From assembly GCA_963666425.2 (NCBI GenBank), contig OY762825.2, positions 1,504,001 through 1,568,000 on the forward strand: a stretch of DNA of 64,000 nt, read 5' to 3'. Shown here one piece after another: positions 24,586 to 37,796 of this stretch. The DNA is from Bacillota bacterium (GTDB lineage Bacteria; Bacillota; JAAYKD01). How positions within the stretch are numbered: position 1 is the first letter of the stretch; each line of letters opens with the position of its first letter. The translations under genes and the position numbers were made by a program. The notes under the pieces are model-generated. The model was not told the DNA's origin. It saw only the letters and a program-made list of their open reading frames with translations, and did no database searches.

Positions 24586-25881
24586 TTATTCTACGGCGTC
24601 TTCTTCTGCCAGGGGTTCTATGCGAGAAATAGCCATTCGTTCCGTCTGTATCGCTTGTGCAAAGCGCTGCAGCAGATCGCTGACACTGATTTCCATTAAG
24701 ACATCGGGAATATCCGTAAAACGATAGCCATACAAATTTGCCGTCAGCAGGTTGACCGCCAGGGCCTCTCCGCTTTCAAAACAGCCCAGCAATTCGCCCA
24801 AGGTTTTCTTTTTCATTCGCTGCAAATTCTCTGACGTCAGCACAGCCAAGGCTTCGCCGCTGCTGAAATACTGCAGCAAGCGCTCCTGTAATGCTGTGGC
24901 CGCGGTCGTGTCGGCAGCGCAAGTCAGCGCACCAAACCAAGGCGTTGCCGTATAATCAGCGGAAAAGAAACTGCTGAATAATTGCTTGGCGGTAAATTCC
25001 CAATAGATGGCCGAGGATTTTCCGCAGATCAGGTCCAGAATCAGATCCATTTCCAGCTGACGGCGCAGCAGATCTTTGCCGGTCAGCACAACCTGACGAT
25101 CATCGGCAAAACCAAGCGCCAACAAGGGGCGAGCCGCCCGCATCGTCAAGCTCAAATCGCTCTGCCCGGCTGGCTGCGGTGCTGCGGCAGGTTGTACCGG
25201 TTGGTAGTTGCTTTGACGACCGCTGCCCCATTTGGCAGCCAGGCGAACCACTGCCGCCGGTTCCAGATCGCCGACGACCACCAAACGGGCCAGAGAAGGC
25301 TGATAATAGGCTTCATAACATTGATAGAGCAGCTCAGCCGTGACCAGTGCAATCGTTTCCGCTTCACCGCCGATATCCTGACCGGCACGGTGATCGCCAA
25401 AGAGGCCATGGCGCAGATTCAATTCCAAACGTTCCTCCGGTTGGTCACGGTACATCATTAATTCTTGGTTAATGATTTCCCGCTCATTGTCGACGCTTTC
25501 CCGGCTGAAACAGGGATGATCGGTAAAATCGAGCAGAAGCTGCAGCACTTCCAGTTGATGATCGCTGCAGTCCGCCATATAAACCGTATGATCGAAATTG
25601 GTAAACGCATTATCATAGGCGCCCAAGGCAGCAAAAGCATCACTGCTGCTGCTGCCGTCCGCTTGGCGAAACAATTGATGTTCCAAAAAGTGCGCCGTAC
25701 CGGCTGTAACCTGCAGGCGTTTTCCCTGCCGGTCCGTGATGGCGTCATGCAAAGAACCAAAAGGGAACGCCAGCTGCGCCGACATATGCTGATGACCCTG
25801 GCGCTGAACAATCGTCAGATGCAGTCCATTGGGCAGCACTTCCTCCAAAATAGGATACGGTACTAAGAATTGTTTCATCAT
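24586..25881 (-). CDS. ymfH: M16 (pitrilysin/insulinase) family peptidase, YmfH-like
   Basis: AHFLEH inverted zinc motif, NAFT and E..II.QE. Confidence 0.88.
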   Translation of the reverse strand: MMKQFLVPYPILEEVLPNGLHLTIVQRQGHQHMSAQLAFPFGSLHDAITDRQGKRLQVTAGTAHFLEHQLFRQADGSSSSDAFAALGAYDNAFTNFDHTVYMADCSDHQLEVLQLLLDFTDHPCFSRESVDNEREIINQELMMYRDQPEERLELNLRHGLFGDHRAGQDIGGEAETIALVTAELLYQCYEAYYQPSLARLVVVGDLEPAAVVRLAAKWGSGRQSNYQPVQPAAAPQPAGQSDLSLTMRAARPLLALGFADDRQVVLTGKDLLRRQLEMDLILDLICGKSSAIYWEFTAKQLFSSFFSADYTATPWFGALTCAADTTAATALQERLLQYFSSGEALAVLTSENLQRMKKKTLGELLGCFESGEALAVNLLTANLYGYRFTDIPDVLMEISVSDLLQRFAQAIQTERMAISRIEPLAEEDAVE

Positions 25882-27155
25882 TGAATTACCTCTCGATCCG
25901 CCAGCAAATAAACCGTATGCGGTTTCAATGTTTGAGCGGCGGCGATGATTTCCTGCCGGCTGATGTTTTGCATTTGCTCAATCATCTGTTCCACATCACC
26001 ATGTCCTTTTAAAAATCGACTGAATTGATAATCCAAACGGCCTTCTGCTTCCTGATTTGACATGCGCAGCTGGCCAGCCACGGTTTGTCTGGTCATCTCC
26101 AGCTCCGCCTCGCTGAAATCGCCTGCCTGCAGCCTTTGCATCTGCTCCGACATCAACGCTGCGGCCTGGACGGCAGCTTCCGCTTCCAAACCGGCGTAAG
26201 CCGTCAGCACACCGGTGGAACGGTCCAGACTGCTGCCGGTTGCGTAAGCTAAACCCGCTTCTTCCCGCACAAAACGGAAAAGGCGGGAATGGGCAAACCC
26301 TCCGTAAAGTCCGTTGACCAAAAAAAGTGCCAAACTGGCTGGCTGTTCATATCCTACTTGAGAACTAAACGCCATCAGCAGCTGACTCTGTTCGCCCGGG
26401 ATGACTTCGGTCACTTTTTCAACACTTGCCCGGTGCGGCAAAACCAGGGCAGCTTTGGCCGCTAACGGCTGCCGCTGCCAATTGAACATCTGCTCAATCT
26501 GAGCCGTCGTCACTTGTTCCACACCATCACCACAAAGGCCGACAATCAAACGGCTGTTTTGCAGCAATTGATGATAAGCATCCATCAATTTCTGATTGCT
26601 GAGCGCCAGCAAATCTGCTTCGGTGCCATAGCGTGGCACTCCGTAAGCCGTATCGCCATAAACCAATGCCTGCATCCGCTGCGCTGCCAGGGAGCTGCGG
26701 TTATTGCGGCTGCTCGCTAAAATCGTCTGCAGTCTTTGCTGTTCCTGATCAAATACTTCTGCCGGGAACAAACCGTCGATCAAATAGGGGGATGTGATCA
26801 TTTCCTGCAGCAGCTGTAAGCCGTCGGTCAGTAAACCGGCTCCGGCGGCGGGTAAAAATCGTCCGTCCGCTAAATTGAGATAAAAAGAAGTCAGATGAAA
26901 GCTGCCTACCCGATTCACCTGTGTATGCAGATCGGCTCCCCAGAGTTCTTCCAAAGCGGCCACCAAGCGGCGCTGATCCGGATAGCGGCGGCTGCCGCGG
27001 CGCAGAAGAGAGCTCAGCAATGCCGCAGAGCTGAAGATGCGGCGTTCCACCGGCTGCACCAGCCAAACTTTCACGTGATGTGTCACATATTGTTGGGCGG
27101 GCAGCCAGAAAATCTGTCCGCCGCCGGATAATTGATCTATTCGAGGATCCGTCAT
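25878..27155 (-). CDS. ymfF: M16 family inactive partner subunit, YmfF-like
   Basis: GG..HSRLF..VRE..GLAY motif, no HxxEH. Paired with the ymfH-like gene. Confidence 0.85.
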   Translation of the reverse strand: MTDPRIDQLSGGGQIFWLPAQQYVTHHVKVWLVQPVERRIFSSAALLSSLLRRGSRRYPDQRRLVAALEELWGADLHTQVNRVGSFHLTSFYLNLADGRFLPAAGAGLLTDGLQLLQEMITSPYLIDGLFPAEVFDQEQQRLQTILASSRNNRSSLAAQRMQALVYGDTAYGVPRYGTEADLLALSNQKLMDAYHQLLQNSRLIVGLCGDGVEQVTTAQIEQMFNWQRQPLAAKAALVLPHRASVEKVTEVIPGEQSQLLMAFSSQVGYEQPASLALFLVNGLYGGFAHSRLFRFVREEAGLAYATGSSLDRSTGVLTAYAGLEAEAAVQAAALMSEQMQRLQAGDFSEAELEMTRQTVAGQLRMSNQEAEGRLDYQFSRFLKGHGDVEQMIEQMQNISRQEIIAAAQTLKPHTVYLLADREVIQ

Positions 27156-33197: not shown

Positions 33198-33837
33198 TTG
33201 TTTCGTTGTTCCGGTCGTTTCGTCGTTTCGCTGTTCCGTCGTTTCGCTGTTCCGTCGTTTCGTTGGTAAGTCGTTGTATCGTTTCGCTGTTTCATTGTTT
33301 CGTTGTTAAGTCGTCAAATCGTTTCGCTGTTTACCCATCATCGTGCAACGATCATGTTGCGTTACGGAACGGTCAAGACCGTTCCCTACCTTTGCCCCAT
33401 CGTTGCATCGTTTCGCTGCTTCATTGTTTCGTTGTTAGGTCGTTCAATCGTTTCGCTGTTTACCCATCATCGCGCAACAATCATGTTGCGTTACGGAACG
33501 GTCAAGACCGTTCCCTACCTTTGCCCCATCGTTGTATCGTTTCGCTGTTTCATTGTTTCGTTGGTAAATCGTCAAATCGTTTCGCTGTTTACCCATCGTT
33601 GTATCGTTTCGCTGTTTCATTGTTTCGTTGTTAGGCCGTCAAATCGTTTCGCTGTTTACCCATCATCGTGCAACGATCATGTTGCGTTACGGAACGGTCA
33701 AGACCGTTCCCTTTGCCCCATCGTTGTATCGTTTCGCTGTTTCGTTGTTCCGTTGTTAGGTCGTCAAATCGTTTCATTGCTTACCCATCATCGTGCAACG
33801 ATCATGTTGCGTTACGGAACGGTCAAGACCGTTCCCT
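33198..33837. repeat. Hierarchical REP-containing tandem array, block 1
   Basis: Octamers of consensus YYGTTTCR nested in a 129-bp unit. REP hairpins cggaacggtcaagaccgttccctac at 33365 and 33494, at 33690 (4-bp deletion) and at 33815 (IS-interrupted). Confidence 0.95.
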
Positions 33838-33940
33838 CGTATATACTAGTAGTGCCAAGGTAACTCATTTACAGGGTACAGGAAGCGAGCCAAAGCCACT
33901 CTTTAGGTATCCAAGGGGTTTGCCCTTTGTGGTATAATTT

Positions 33941-34070
33941 TGTCAGGCAGAGGTCAACGTACTGTTCCCTGGGAATCGTTCCTGTGATGTAGAGTGTTGC
34001 CTCTGATCTGACAGAAATCTGCGTATTGGCTGGATAGGGTAAAATCCTTGTATTTCACGCGAGGTTGCAG
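33941..34070 (+). ncRNA. IS110 bridge RNA core (target- and donor-binding loops), copy 1
   Basis: Stem tgtcag-cagagg-caac / gttg-cctctg-ctgaca encloses LTG actgttccct (target accgttccCT) and RTG gtag (reverse complement of CTac). A second loop carries LDG tggct and RDG cgag, matching donor tggCTcg. The 5' end of the transcript is unknown. Confidence 0.8.
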
Positions 34071-34127
34071 CTGTCAGCGTCAGAGAGATCATCCTTTGCC
34101 GCATTCCAGTTTGAGGAGTTGCTGTAA

Positions 34128-35300
34128 ATGATTACTTTTGGCGTAGACATCGGTAAATTCCGTCACCAGGCGATCGCGGTGGACGCCAGTGGTCAAGCGC
34201 TGGCTCCCTCGTTTGCATTTGAAAATTCCGAAGAGGGCTTTCAATTGTTTTTGCAGAAGGTCGCTCTTTACCAAAAGCAAGATGCAATTTGCGTCGGCAT
34301 GGAAGCCACCGGTCATTACTGGCTGAATTTTTATTGTGTTTTACTCGATTTAGGAATTGAATTGCATGTGGTCAATCCCCTGCTCACCGACGCCATACGG
34401 CGCATGTCTGTCCGTAAAACCAAGACGGATACGGTGGATTGCGGTTATATCGCGGATGTGATCCGCATGGGACGTTATTCCGACGTAGCGGTACAAACGG
34501 AGGATGTCCAGAATTTACGCGAGTTATGCCGTTTCCGCTGTTCTCTGGTTGATGAGATTGCAAAGCACAAAAACCATGTAATTGGCGTGCTGGATCATCT
34601 TTTTCCGGAATATCACAAGCTTTTTTCAGATATTTTCGGTAAAACTTCGCTGGAGTTGCTCAGCAAGTATCCGTCACCGGATGCCATTCTGAAGCTCGGC
34701 ACAAAGCGGTTGGCTGATTTTTTAGCGAAGCATTCCCGCGGCAGTTTCGGTGAGGAAAAAGCGCTGGAGATCCGCAGCGCCTGCAAACACACAGTTGGGG
34801 TGAATAGAGCAAATGCTGCTCTATGCTTTGAATTACACCAAACCGTGGATCTGATTCAATTCATTGAAGAACAGATTGACGCAATTGAAAAAAAGATTGA
34901 GCAGATCTATTCCCAATGTGAATGCTATCTGGATACCATTATTGGTGTTGGAGTCACCTCGGCTGCGGTGATCTACTCGGAAATCGGCAATATTGATAAT
35001 TTCGAAAATCCGAAGAAACTGGCGGCATTTGCCGGTATTGACCCTTCGATTAAACAATCCGGTAATTTCACTTCAACGCACAACACGATGTCGAAGCGAG
35101 GCTCACCTTATCTGCGCAGAGCGCTCTGGAATGCCGCAACGGTTGCCGCGCAAAAAGATCCGGTCATGTCTGCTTTTTACCAGAAGAAACGCGACGAAGG
35201 AAAAGATTATATGACGGCAATTGGAGCTGTTACACATAAATTATGCAACATTGTTTTCGCTGTTTTAAGGGATAAAAAGCCTTATGTTCCCAGAATATAA
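34128..35300 (+). CDS. IS110 family transposase/recombinase (DEDD RuvC-like plus Tnp domain)
   Basis: GVDIGK, MEATG and KTKTDTVD catalytic acidic residues. GIDP...QSG serine motif and SKRG...LR.AL. Confidence 0.97.
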   Translation: MITFGVDIGKFRHQAIAVDASGQALAPSFAFENSEEGFQLFLQKVALYQKQDAICVGMEATGHYWLNFYCVLLDLGIELHVVNPLLTDAIRRMSVRKTKTDTVDCGYIADVIRMGRYSDVAVQTEDVQNLRELCRFRCSLVDEIAKHKNHVIGVLDHLFPEYHKLFSDIFGKTSLELLSKYPSPDAILKLGTKRLADFLAKHSRGSFGEEKALEIRSACKHTVGVNRANAALCFELHQTVDLIQFIEEQIDAIEKKIEQIYSQCECYLDTIIGVGVTSAAVIYSEIGNIDNFENPKKLAAFAGIDPSIKQSGNFTSTHNTMSKRGSPYLRRALWNAATVAAQKDPVMSAFYQKKRDEGKDYMTAIGAVTHKLCNIVFAVLRDKKPYVPRI

Positions 35301-35333
35301 TTTTCGTTTTGCCACTTGACGTTTGATAGCTGG

Positions 35334-36108
35334 CTACCTTTGTCCCATCGTTGTATCGTTTCGCTGTTTCATTGTTTCGGTGTTTCGTTGGTAAGTCGTT
35401 GTATCGTTTCGCTGTTTCATTGTTCTGTTCTTATGTCGTCAAATCGTTTCGTTGTTTACCCATCATCGTGCAACGACCATGTTGCGTTACGGAACGGTCA
35501 AGACCGTTCCCTACCTTTGCCCCATCGTTGTATCGTTTCGCTGTTTCATTGTTTCGCTGTTAGGTCGTCAAATCGTTTCGCTGTTTACCCATCATCGCGC
35601 AACAATCATGTTGCGTTACGGAACGGTCAAGACCGTTCCCTACCTTTGTCCCATCGTTGTATCGTTTCGCTGTTTCATTGTTCCGTTGTTAGGTCGTCAA
35701 ATCGTTTCATTGCTTACCCATCATCGTGCAACGACCATGTTGCGTTACGGAACGGTCAAGACCGTTCCCTACCTTTGCCCCATCGTTGCATCGTTTCGCT
35801 GTTTCATTGTTTCGTTGGTAAGTCGTTGTATCGTTTCGCTGTTTACCCATCATCGTGCAACGATCATGTTGCGTTACGGAACGGTCAAGACCGTTCCCTA
35901 CCTTTGCCCCATCGTTGTATCGTTTCGCTGTTTCATTGTTTCGTTGTTCCGTCGTTGCATCGTTTCGCTGTTCCGGTGTTTCGTTGGTAAGTCGTTGTAT
36001 CGTTTCGCTGTTTCATTGTTCCGTTGTTAGGTCGTCAAATCGTTTCATTGCTTACCCATCATCGTGCAACGACCATGTTGCGTTACGGAACGGTCAAGAC
36101 CGTTCCCT
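35334..36108. repeat. Hierarchical REP-containing tandem array, block 2
   Basis: REPs at 35490, 35619, 35748 and 35877 (exact 129-bp spacing) and at 36086 (IS-interrupted; spacing 209 = 129 + 10x8). Confidence 0.95.
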
Positions 36109-36211
36109 CGTATATACTAGTAGTGCCAAGGTAACTCATTTACAGGGTACAGGAAGCGAGCCAAAGCCACTCTTTAGGTATCCAAGGGGTTTGCCCTTTG
36201 TGGTATAATTT

Positions 36212-36341
36212 TGTCAGGCAGAGGTCAACGTACTGTTCCCTGGGAATCGTTCCTGTGATGTAGAGTGTTGCCTCTGATCTGACAGAAATCTGCGTATTGG
36301 CTGGATAGGGTAAAATCCTTGTATTTCACGCGAGGTTGCAG
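36212..36341 (+). ncRNA. IS110 bridge RNA core, copy 2
   Basis: Same sequence as 33941-34070. Confidence 0.8.
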
Positions 36342-36398
36342 CTGTCAGCGTCAGAGAGATCATCCTTTGCCGCATTCCAGTTTGAGGAGTTGCTGTAA

Positions 36399-37571
36399 AT
36401 GATTACTTTTGGCGTAGACATCGGTAAATTCCGTCACCAGGCGATCGCGGTGGACGCCAGTGGTCAAGCGCTGGCTCCCTCGTTTGCATTTGAAAATTCC
36501 GAAGAGGGCTTTCAATTGTTTTTGCAGAAGGTCGCTCTTTACCAAAAGCAAGATGCAATTTGCGTCGGCATGGAAGCCACCGGTCATTACTGGCTGAATT
36601 TTTATTGTGTTTTACTCGATTTAGGAATTGAATTGCATGTGGTCAATCCCCTGCTCACCGACGCCATACGGCGCATGTCTGTCCGTAAAACCAAGACGGA
36701 TACGGTGGATTGCGGTTATATCGCGGATGTGATCCGCATGGGACGTTATTCCGACGTAGCGGTACAAACGGAGGATGTCCAGAATTTACGCGAGTTATGC
36801 CGTTTCCGCTGTTCTCTGGTTGATGAGATTGCAAAGCACAAAAACCATGTAATTGGCGTGCTGGATCATCTTTTTCCGGAATATCACAAGCTTTTTTCAG
36901 ATATTTTCGGTAAAACTTCGCTGGAGTTGCTCAGCAAGTATCCGTCACCGGATGCCATTCTGAAGCTCGGCACAAAGCGGTTGGCTGATTTTTTAGCGAA
37001 GCATTCCCGCGGCAGTTTCGGTGAGGAAAAAGCGCTGGAGATCCGCAGCGCCTGCAAACACACAGTTGGGGTGAATAGAGCAAATGCTGCTCTATGCTTT
37101 GAATTACACCAAACCGTGGATCTGATTCAATTCATTGAAGAACAGATTGACGCAATTGAAAAAAAGATTGAGCAGATCTATTCCCAATGTGAATGCTATC
37201 TGGATACCATTATTGGTGTTGGAGTCACCTCGGCTGCGGTGATCTACTCGGAAATCGGCAATATTGATAATTTCGAAAATCCGAAGAAACTGGCGGCATT
37301 TGCCGGTATTGACCCTTCGATTAAACAATCCGGTAATTTCACTTCAACGCACAACACGATGTCGAAGCGAGGCTCACCTTATCTGCGCAGAGCGCTCTGG
37401 AATGCCGCAACGGTTGCCGCGCAAAAAGATCCGGTCATGTCTGCTTTTTACCAGAAGAAACGCGACGAAGGAAAAGATTATATGACGGCAATTGGAGCTG
37501 TTACACATAAATTATGCAACATTGTTTTCGCTGTTTTAAGGGATAAAAAGCCTTATGTTCCCAGAATATAA
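36399..37571 (+). CDS. IS110 family transposase/recombinase, copy 2
   Basis: Protein identical to 34128-35300. Confidence 0.97.
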   Translation: MITFGVDIGKFRHQAIAVDASGQALAPSFAFENSEEGFQLFLQKVALYQKQDAICVGMEATGHYWLNFYCVLLDLGIELHVVNPLLTDAIRRMSVRKTKTDTVDCGYIADVIRMGRYSDVAVQTEDVQNLRELCRFRCSLVDEIAKHKNHVIGVLDHLFPEYHKLFSDIFGKTSLELLSKYPSPDAILKLGTKRLADFLAKHSRGSFGEEKALEIRSACKHTVGVNRANAALCFELHQTVDLIQFIEEQIDAIEKKIEQIYSQCECYLDTIIGVGVTSAAVIYSEIGNIDNFENPKKLAAFAGIDPSIKQSGNFTSTHNTMSKRGSPYLRRALWNAATVAAQKDPVMSAFYQKKRDEGKDYMTAIGAVTHKLCNIVFAVLRDKKPYVPRI

Positions 37572-37604
37572 TTTTCGTTTTGCCACTTGACGTTTGATAG
37601 CTGG

Positions 37605-37796
37605 CTACCTTTGCCCCATCGTTGCATCGTTTCGCTGTTTCATTGTTTCGTTGGTAAGTCGTTGTATCGTTTCGCTGTTTCATTGTTCCGTTGTTAAGTC
37701 GTTGTATCGTTTCGCTGTTTCATTGTTTCGCTGTTAAGTCGTTGTATCGTTTCGCTGTTTACCCATCATCGTGCAACGATCATGTTGCGTTACGGA
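37605..37796. repeat. Hierarchical tandem array, block 3 (40-bp = 5-octamer sub-repeats, ends in a truncated REP)
   Basis: About three copies of gtcgttg(t/c)atcgtttcgctgtttcattgttYcgYtg(t/g)taa, then the gcaac..gttgc hairpin and only cgga of the REP. Confidence 0.9.

Follow-up and report, generated by a model that had tools for sequence, protein, structure and literature searches.

The window analyzed here, a stretch of 64,000 nucleotides (positions 1,504,001 to 1,568,000 of contig OY762825.2, GenBank assembly GCA_963666425.2), contains an active-looking insertion sequence (IS) of the IS110 group, whose left end encodes, with a probability of roughly 0.9, an IS621-type bridge RNA that reads both a genomic hairpin as its target and the ends of the element itself. 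All positions refer to the window unless indicated otherwise, and all features described lie on its forward strand. An initial annotation made from the sequence letters alone had proposed that the non-coding left end specifies a bispecific bridge RNA aimed at a local repetitive extragenic palindrome (REP). This core claim is supported by the homology of the encoded protein to the recombinases of IS621 and ISCro4, by the location of all 10 genomic copies at the predicted site, and by the covariation of the four predicted guides with their partner sequences across related elements. The defining features of IS110-group bridge systems that are testable on a sequence were found in the recombinase, the RNA, its guides and the core, the observations being mixed for the handshake nucleotides and for a 5' stem-loop.

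The boundaries of the element were obtained by comparing the flanks of its copies and enclose 1,498 bp (33838-35335), including a right-hand CT. This CT dinucleotide, the core, is common to both junctions (left copy, 33836-33837; right copy, 35334-35335) and occurs once in empty sites. The host genome (3.2 Mb in 18 contigs) contains 10 full-length copies with 99-100% identity, which carry 0-16 single nucleotide polymorphisms (SNPs) per copy and include three identical ones, and in addition one 83-nt left-end remnant. No IS110-type gene family other than this one was found in the genome. A second, identical copy (36109-37606) lies 773 bp downstream of the first within the same tandem repeat array. 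Eight of the 10 copies form four same-strand pairs with distances of 200-773 bp (C1 92799/94819, 706185/707993, 1537838/1540109, and 1590169/1591867). Since the members of a pair differ by 0 to approximately 19 SNPs, at least some of these pairs are independent hits into neighbouring repeat units and not duplications. The left-end remnant (L011:1501-1583; genome C1:1593457-1593539) is degraded, has an identity of 87%, stops before the bridge RNA, and adjoins a variant of the target hairpin (GGAATGGT..ACCATTCC) approximately 90 bp from a full copy in head-to-head orientation.

All 10 copies contain an intact open reading frame (ORF) for a recombinase of 390 amino acids (34128-35300), which is preceded by the putative ribosome-binding site GAGGAG (34113-34118), recognized by reading the sequence. 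In the Pfam analysis the protein matched the profiles DEDD_Tnp_IS110 (PF01548; 1.8e-40) and Transposase_20 (PF02371; 8.2e-26), and it also matched the solved recombinases of IS621 (E = 3.9e-21) and ISCro4 (E = 5.4e-21). The residues D7, E59, D101, and D104 as well as the serine of an SG motif (S311) align with conserved motif positions of IS621 and are putative catalytic residues. The protein combines an N-terminal DEDD RuvC-like domain with a C-terminal Tnp domain carrying the putative catalytic serine.

The insertion target is a hairpin, GGAACGGT-caag-ACCGTTCC (33816-33835), the 3' arm of which constitutes the left target (LT). In the form GGAACGGT-N4-ACCGTTCC this 20-nt hairpin occurs 117 times in the 3.2-Mb genome, and an intact repeat unit reads ...gaccgttccCTacc. 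No copy of the element was found at an unrelated site: all 10 are located directly 3' of a hairpin with the CT core, as predicted by the guides, and share the left flank ...GGAAC(G/A)GTcaagAC(C/T)GTTCC-CT. The right flank is AC-AT in 7 of the 10 copies and AC-CT in the remaining 3; flank comparison assigned ACCT (35336-35339) as the right target in the window, with ACAT at the 7 other copies. Eight of the occupied sites are of the ACCG type and two of the ACTG type, while 121 empty sites are left, which comprise 110 ACCGTTCCCTAC (ACCG-type) and 11 ACTGTTCCCTAC (ACTG-type) sequences. A short palindromic unit in 117 genomic copies resembles the REPs named in the initial annotation, and in the window these hairpins end tandem units of 129 bp. 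The tandem array (33198-37760; approximately 92% matches between units) hosts both copies of the element, and each unit terminates in the target hairpin followed by CTACC. The long ORFs listed in this region, such as 35316-35990, are artefacts of the repeats.

A scan of one genome per species yielded 80 related loci, whose recombinases share 44-64% identity with that of the window. The loci are nearly all labelled as Bacillota (Clostridia, Tissierellales, Negativicutes, and others), with a few short contigs of metagenome-assembled genomes labelled otherwise. Their upstream regions align across the entire RNA, and their element ends were set by conserved end motifs (left, CT-NN-TATAAT-like; right, TTGAC-N-ATAGNNGG(T)CT) and not by their own guides. 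With these loci a conserved structured region was delimited at 33941-34070, in the left end and upstream of the recombinase gene. It consists of a target-binding loop (TBL) followed by a donor-binding loop (DBL), so that the two stem-enclosed loops proposed initially are borne out by comparative evidence. The TBL module (33941-34013) is built from the helices P1 (33941-33953/34000-34013) and P2 (33955-33959/33995-33999) and an inner hairpin (33971-33983), all of which show covariation. The DBL module (34019-34070) has a stem at 34019-34022/34067-34070, which is 98% paired with compensatory changes in 4 of 4 pairs, and an inner hairpin at 34036-34039/34046-34049.

The guide strings named initially were all present in these loops, namely ACTGTTCCCT at 33961-33970, GTAG at 33989-33992, TGGCT at 34027-34031, and CGAG at 34060-34063. 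The left target guide (LTG) is CUGUUCCCU (33962-33970; A33961 is a possible extension), which has the same sense as LT plus core and is predicted to pair with the bottom strand. The mismatch in the proposed 9/10 match was correctly read as a wobble: U33963 forms a U:G pair at the 8 ACCG-type insertion sites and matches perfectly at the 2 occupied ACTG-type sites. The copy at C1:706185 carries T33963C and with it a perfect LTG for the ACCG-type sites of the main repeat. For the right target guide (RTG), the string GTAG is indeed complementary to CT-AC, but the guide is longer. Flank comparison and the published pairing rule extend it to the 6-7 nt of (G)AUGUAG (33986-33992), the reverse complement of core and right target CTACAT(T), which is found at 7 of the 10 copies and allows six Watson-Crick pairs and one G:T pair. 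The subsequent nucleotides A33993-G33994 occupy the handshake position of the TBL. According to the accessible text of the original reports, LTG and the left donor guide (LDG) pair with the bottom strand, RTG and the right donor guide (RDG) with the top strand, and each includes the core (PMC11208160, PMC11208158). The orientation of all four guide strings conforms to this rule. When the 290-nt left end was subjected to mononucleotide shuffling, 102 of 20,000 shuffles contained a match of at least 9/10 to the left-target 10-mer, and only 8 of 20,000 also had GTAG 8-40 nt downstream of that match.

In the DBL, the LDG was identified as GGCUGG (34028-34033; U34027 is a possible extension), which is followed by an AU linker (34034-34035) and would pair with AGCTGG at the right end of the element, where sequence and guide comparison place the left donor with the core CT (35328-35335). 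The initial annotation had assigned the LDG to TGGCT. The string exists and its pairing is physically possible in the window element, whose run GCTGGCTGG permits both registers, but of 59 loci only that in the window agrees with this register, which was rejected for the family. The covarying register (34028-34033 with 35328-35333) starts 1 nt 3' of TGGCT and is shifted by approximately 3 nt in the donor bases. The proposed right donor guide CGAG lies within the RDG GCGAG (34059-34063), the reverse complement of core and left-end CTCG(T) with one G:T pair. G34064-U34065 occupy the handshake position of the DBL, and G34064 can pair with the target base C33835. LDG and RDG thus match the right and left end, respectively, around the same CT core.

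Covariation of the guides across homologous IS110 elements, which had been suggested as a check, was observed for all four guides, each of which tracks the flanks or ends of its own element. Comparison of the LTG with the 7 nt preceding the core gave on average 5.00 matches for cognate and 3.47 for non-cognate combinations (61 loci), and the RTG compared with the 5 nt that follow the core gave 3.33 and 1.72, respectively (55 loci); in both cases none of 10,000 permutations reached the observed value. The RDG matched the first three left-end bases exactly in 66 of 70 loci, which fall into the classes CGT (40), TGT (12), ACT (5), GTT (5), and CCT (4), and 3 of the 4 misses, including the window, are G:T wobbles. 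The LDG matched the right-end hexamer exactly in 56 of 59 loci, with the classes AGCTGG (40), AGTTGG (10), AGCCGG (5), and AGTTAG (1); in L018 and in the window element the guide is GGCUGG, which gives a G:T wobble. In the genome studied here as well as among the related loci, a sense LTG copying LT plus core and an RTG complementary to core plus right target covary with the insertion sites.

The stems that enclose the guides were evaluated in a structure-blind alignment, in which 87.1% of the cells of the 27-pair structure were paired, compared with 37-53% when partners were slid against each other. Changes on both sides were found in 24 of the 27 pairs. The covariation score was 0.557 versus 0.251 in shuffled alignments, none of 500 shuffles reaching the observed value. 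A model-fitted alignment, which favours the structure by construction, was 88.7% paired. RNAalifold recovered P1, P2, the TBL hairpin, and the DBL stem, with compensatory changes in 14 of 16 pairs. A covariance model of the RNA matched upstream of the ORF in 79 of the 80 related loci, 71 of which had served to build the model, and the single miss has only 36 nt of upstream sequence. In the host genome the model produced 10 matches, one per copy of the element. The copy at C1:92799-94296 carries the substitution G34070A, by which the 4-bp DBL stem loses its outermost pair, and scored 91.8 bits compared with 96.4 bits.

Several observations count against the interpretation as a bridge RNA. The single-sequence folding energies are not significant (z-scores of -1.54 and -1.64), and for this reason the structure was judged comparatively. 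A search of Rfam matched no family, the sole hit being IRES_IGF2 with an E-value of 9.3. A strict promoter scan of the plus strand of the left end produced no call, and no terminator was detected after the DBL. One wastewater metatranscriptome contained two contigs (33838-34024 and 34056-34322), whose depth of 2-12 and possible origin from DNA carry-over make them a weak hint of transcription, and the lack of coverage over the rest of the element in that run carries no weight. Among the other sequencing runs, X2 (probably DNA) covers 34344-34481, and the element is present in full length in X3 and X5. On the side of the guides, LDG pairing spans at most 7 bp including one wobble, and the TBL handshake nucleotide A33993 mismatches G35333, the donor base that precedes the core. 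The concordance counts depend on 4 left-end boundaries that were fixed by hand and on the removal of loci cut by contig ends, and the LTG ends at alignment column 33 in the relatives and at column 34 in the window. The LTG register of the window is the better fit for L027 and L033, whose targets are likewise hairpins of the GGAAC...GTTCC type. Finally, guide covariation demonstrates a constraint on sequence matching and does not by itself prove that the partner is an RNA.

This last point, together with the weakness of the metatranscriptome hint, is what can be said for the view that the matches in the left end are features of the DNA, such as sub-terminal binding sites of the recombinase or a remembered copy of the target, and that the stems are incidental. 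Such an origin is highly improbable, as the helices flanking the guides show compensatory changes typical of RNA pairing, G:U pairs included, the LTG is sense and the RTG antisense as the published RNA pairing rule demands, and the protein is homologous to recombinases that were solved in complex with bridge RNA.

If the left end encodes a bridge RNA, we infer that this RNA is made, bound by the recombinase, and used to direct recombination. In the TBL, the LTG would pair with the bottom strand of LT plus core and the RTG GAUGUAG with the top strand of CT-ACAT(T). In the DBL, the predicted partner of the LDG GGCUGG is the right-end sequence AGCTGG, and the RDG GCGAG would pair with CT-CG(T), where the left end starts. 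The 390-residue DEDD/Ser recombinase loaded with the RNA would then recombine the circularized element at the CT core, so that the predicted insertion point is the CT directly 3' of the 20-nt hairpin repeat.

Circularization would also assemble a promoter across the junction, whose two halves are putatively located at opposite ends of the element. The start of the left end contains a -10-like sequence (TATATA/TATACT; 33840-33847) and the right end the hexamer TTGACG (35316-35321) as the -35 half, both of which were assigned from the spacing in relatives. There, in 55 of 58 elements, 17 nt separate a TTGAC-type hexamer at the right end from a TATAAT-like hexamer at positions +3 to +8 of the left end, 44 of these 55 having TATAAT itself, and the spacing is 16 nt in the window. 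This arrangement is indicative of a split -35/-10 promoter that would be formed only upon circularization. A second candidate is the extended -10-like box TGgTATAAT just upstream of the TBL (33930-33938), which is nearly invariant as TGnnATAAT in the alignment of the relatives and could serve as promoter of a short RNA. The strict scan did not call this box because it lacks a -35 element. Since no more than 36 of 71 regions have a strict TANNNT upstream of the TBL, GATAAT taking its place in many relatives, an internal promoter can be regarded as putative only. RNAalifold found no consensus pairs within the 50 nt upstream of the TBL; by eye, a hairpin overlapping the TGnnATAAT box is visible in some subgroups.

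The first nucleotide of the TBL handshake is a purine in all 69 rows of the relatives and faces a donor T in 57 of the 59 loci with a mapped right end, the window and L012 lacking this T. The window element and L012, its closest relative, end with ..GCTGG-CT, while the other 57 of 59 right ends have an extra T, ..G(T)-CT. Loss of this nucleotide would remove the partner base of the handshake and also shorten the spacer of the junction promoter. The shortened right end might be taken to mean, along with the degraded left-end fragment in the genome and the DBL stem substitution G34070A in one copy, that the element is a decaying relic, which has retained readable guides but no longer transposes in its host. 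This is unlikely: the 390-amino-acid ORFs are intact in all 10 copies, three copies are identical, every copy is located precisely at a cognate site, and the guide polymorphism tracks the target variants.

The anatomy of this RNA may differ from two independent loops. Downstream of the DBL is a segment a' (34071-34087), a near-repeat of the TBL 5' strand (a), which can act as the alternative partner of the TBL 3' strand (b; 34000-34014) and would in this way extend the DBL stem. It is followed by segment b' (CCUUUGCC; 34093-34100), which can pair with 33946-33953 of the TBL 5' strand. The same system would then have a longer RNA (approximately 33945-34100), either bistable or folded into a three-way junction. 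Which fold is adopted could determine how much TBL-only RNA is formed relative to full-length RNA, or could control the translation of the transposase. Such an anatomy is a serious possibility, if not the favoured one. In a structure-blind alignment across 71 relatives, 82.0% of the b:a' cells were paired (37-55% with slid partners) and 11 of 12 pairs were compensatory, and the canonical helix a:b (P1) performed no better (81.0% paired, 8 of 11 compensatory). Duplex energies were lower for cognate than for non-cognate combinations, with -16.4 versus -11.0 kcal/mol for b:a' and -13.2 versus -8.3 kcal/mol for a:b'. In minimum-energy folds of the whole leader, b:a' with at least 6 bp appeared in 59 of 71 sequences, both alternative helices in 51, and a:b in 13; the minimum-energy fold of the window sequence shows the alternative topology. 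As precedents, the available description of CazIS110-1 mentions an abundant TBL-only RNA of approximately 77 nt besides a bridge RNA of approximately 170 nt (10.1101/2025.10.25.684509), and for ISPpu9 a structure in the 5'-untranslated region is described, in the accessible part of the report, as regulating the transposase of this IS110-family element (PMC8450116). In contrast, when the leader of the window element is folded as far as the ribosome-binding site, a:b is retained with 13 bp, and the two folds are thus near-isoenergetic in this sequence. Moreover, a' nearly repeats a, so that its covariation with b could stem from a duplication that was retained for some other purpose, the evidence for b' consists of energies, and the relatedness of the sequences inflates shuffle-based statistics. 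A description of the alternative a'/b' pairing was not found in the literature searched, with the supplements of the papers beyond reach.

The targets of the related elements have a character of their own. In most of them (L013-L091) the left target is ...(A)CCTCCT, the reverse complement of the Shine-Dalgarno sequence, and at 28 of 53 loci the opposite strand continues with a start codon and a reading frame that stays open for 100 codons or more. The clade therefore inserts mostly just upstream of ribosome-binding sites, while the lineage of the window, L027/L028, and L033 use GGAAC...GTTCC hairpins as target instead. Shine-Dalgarno targeting by IS110 elements was not described in the literature searched, paper supplements having been out of reach. 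In a more speculative scenario, which we consider doubtful at present, the bridge RNA of this Bacillota-type clade is embedded in a conserved bistable leader that switches between TBL-only RNA, full bridge RNA, and translatable transposase mRNA, and the clade was ancestrally aimed at Shine-Dalgarno sequences before the present lineage was retargeted to a hairpin repeat. Such control by a leader switch would be a layer that is not described for IS621.

Regarding the host, the window encodes at 24586-27155 equivalogs of YfmH and YfmF above the NCBIfam cut-offs, which are associated with the 5-aminopentanol modification of EF-P. No Spo0A above the cut-off and no LpxC were found in the genome. Together with the predominance of Bacillota among the relatives, these features hint at a non-sporulating, monoderm host of the Bacillota type, and the label "Firmicute" used in the initial annotation is plausible.

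As its guide RNA is located upstream of the recombinase gene, the element is assigned to the IS110 group. The seekRNA elements of the IS1111 group, on which Siddiquee et al. worked in 2024, are reportedly RNA-guided DEDD transposases of the same superfamily with the guide RNA downstream of the transposase gene. This type was rejected for the window element, whose guide RNA lies upstream and whose right end extends just 35 nt beyond the stop codon. With IS621 of Escherichia coli it shares, as far as the accessible description of that system extends, a recombinase with DEDD and Ser motifs, an RNA in the left end with the TBL preceding the DBL, the CT core, a sense LTG and an antisense RTG that both include the core, and a repeated palindromic element as target. 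Further similarities are the AU linker after the LDG, GU linkers, a GU in the DBL handshake position, and a third right-donor base that forms a G:T pair. For the TBL of IS621 the available text gives the order GU, LTG, hairpin, GU, an optional 3-nt RTG extension, a 4-nt RTG, and two handshake nucleotides, and for the DBL the order LDG, AU, hairpin, GU, RDG, GU (PMC11208158). The order here is parallel: stem, GU, LTG, hairpin, GU, RTG, and handshake, followed by LDG, AU, hairpin, GU, RDG, and GU. In contrast to IS621 as described there, the natural RTG is 6-7 nt long, the LDG either does not reach the first core base in its pairing or mismatches it, the target repeat is a different one, a 5' stem-loop like that of IS621 is not clearly recognizable, and a conserved alternative partner exists for the TBL 3' strand; the similarity of the proteins is distant (E approximately 4e-21) and mostly restricted to the C-terminal domain. 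The recombinase of ISCro4 (PDB 9t56), for which the comparison covers the protein only, is a similarly distant homolog (5.4e-21). ISPpu10 of Pseudomonas putida, in the portion of its description that is available, likewise has all its insertions beside a conserved stem-loop located just 5' of the base-paired target, which compares with the hairpin 3' arm serving as LT here, but it differs in host phylum and repeat (10.64898/2026.03.19.712850).

The novelty suggested in the initial annotation, which named the element a candidate new programmable bridge system, is overstated, since CazIS110-1 has already been characterized and bridge RNAs have been catalogued in large numbers. The host of CazIS110-1, Caloranaerobacter azorensis, belongs to the Clostridia, a class of the Firmicutes. 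According to the accessible part of its description, CazIS110-1 is an IS110 bridge system that also has 10 genomic copies, a TBL and a DBL, and an RNA of approximately 170 nt, and its TBL-only RNA of approximately 77 nt is close in length to the 73-nt TBL module found here, a comparison made by description only; in contrast to the element in the window, which is known from sequence, its activity was shown by experiment (10.1101/2025.10.25.684509). A report from 2024 describes bridge RNAs for thousands of IS110 elements (PMC11208160), and a preprint from 2026, as far as its text is available, reports 32,190 bridge RNAs modelled with 86 covariance models (10.64898/2026.10.21.760802). As a candidate tool the element is one among tens of thousands catalogued, and its worth is that of a well-documented example, a natural bridge RNA system that is cleanly readable over approximately 27-29 guide nucleotides. 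Less ordinary are the guide and target variants within one genome, the alternative pairing, and the Shine-Dalgarno insertion of the relatives. The genome represents a natural specificity experiment, in which two target and two LTG variants coexist with 121 empty sites and in which both U:G-tolerated and perfectly matched sites are in use, and the element may open a way into the alternative TBL-stem pairing and the ribosome-binding-site targeting of its clade. Overall, it is a real but ordinary addition to the well-described bridge systems.

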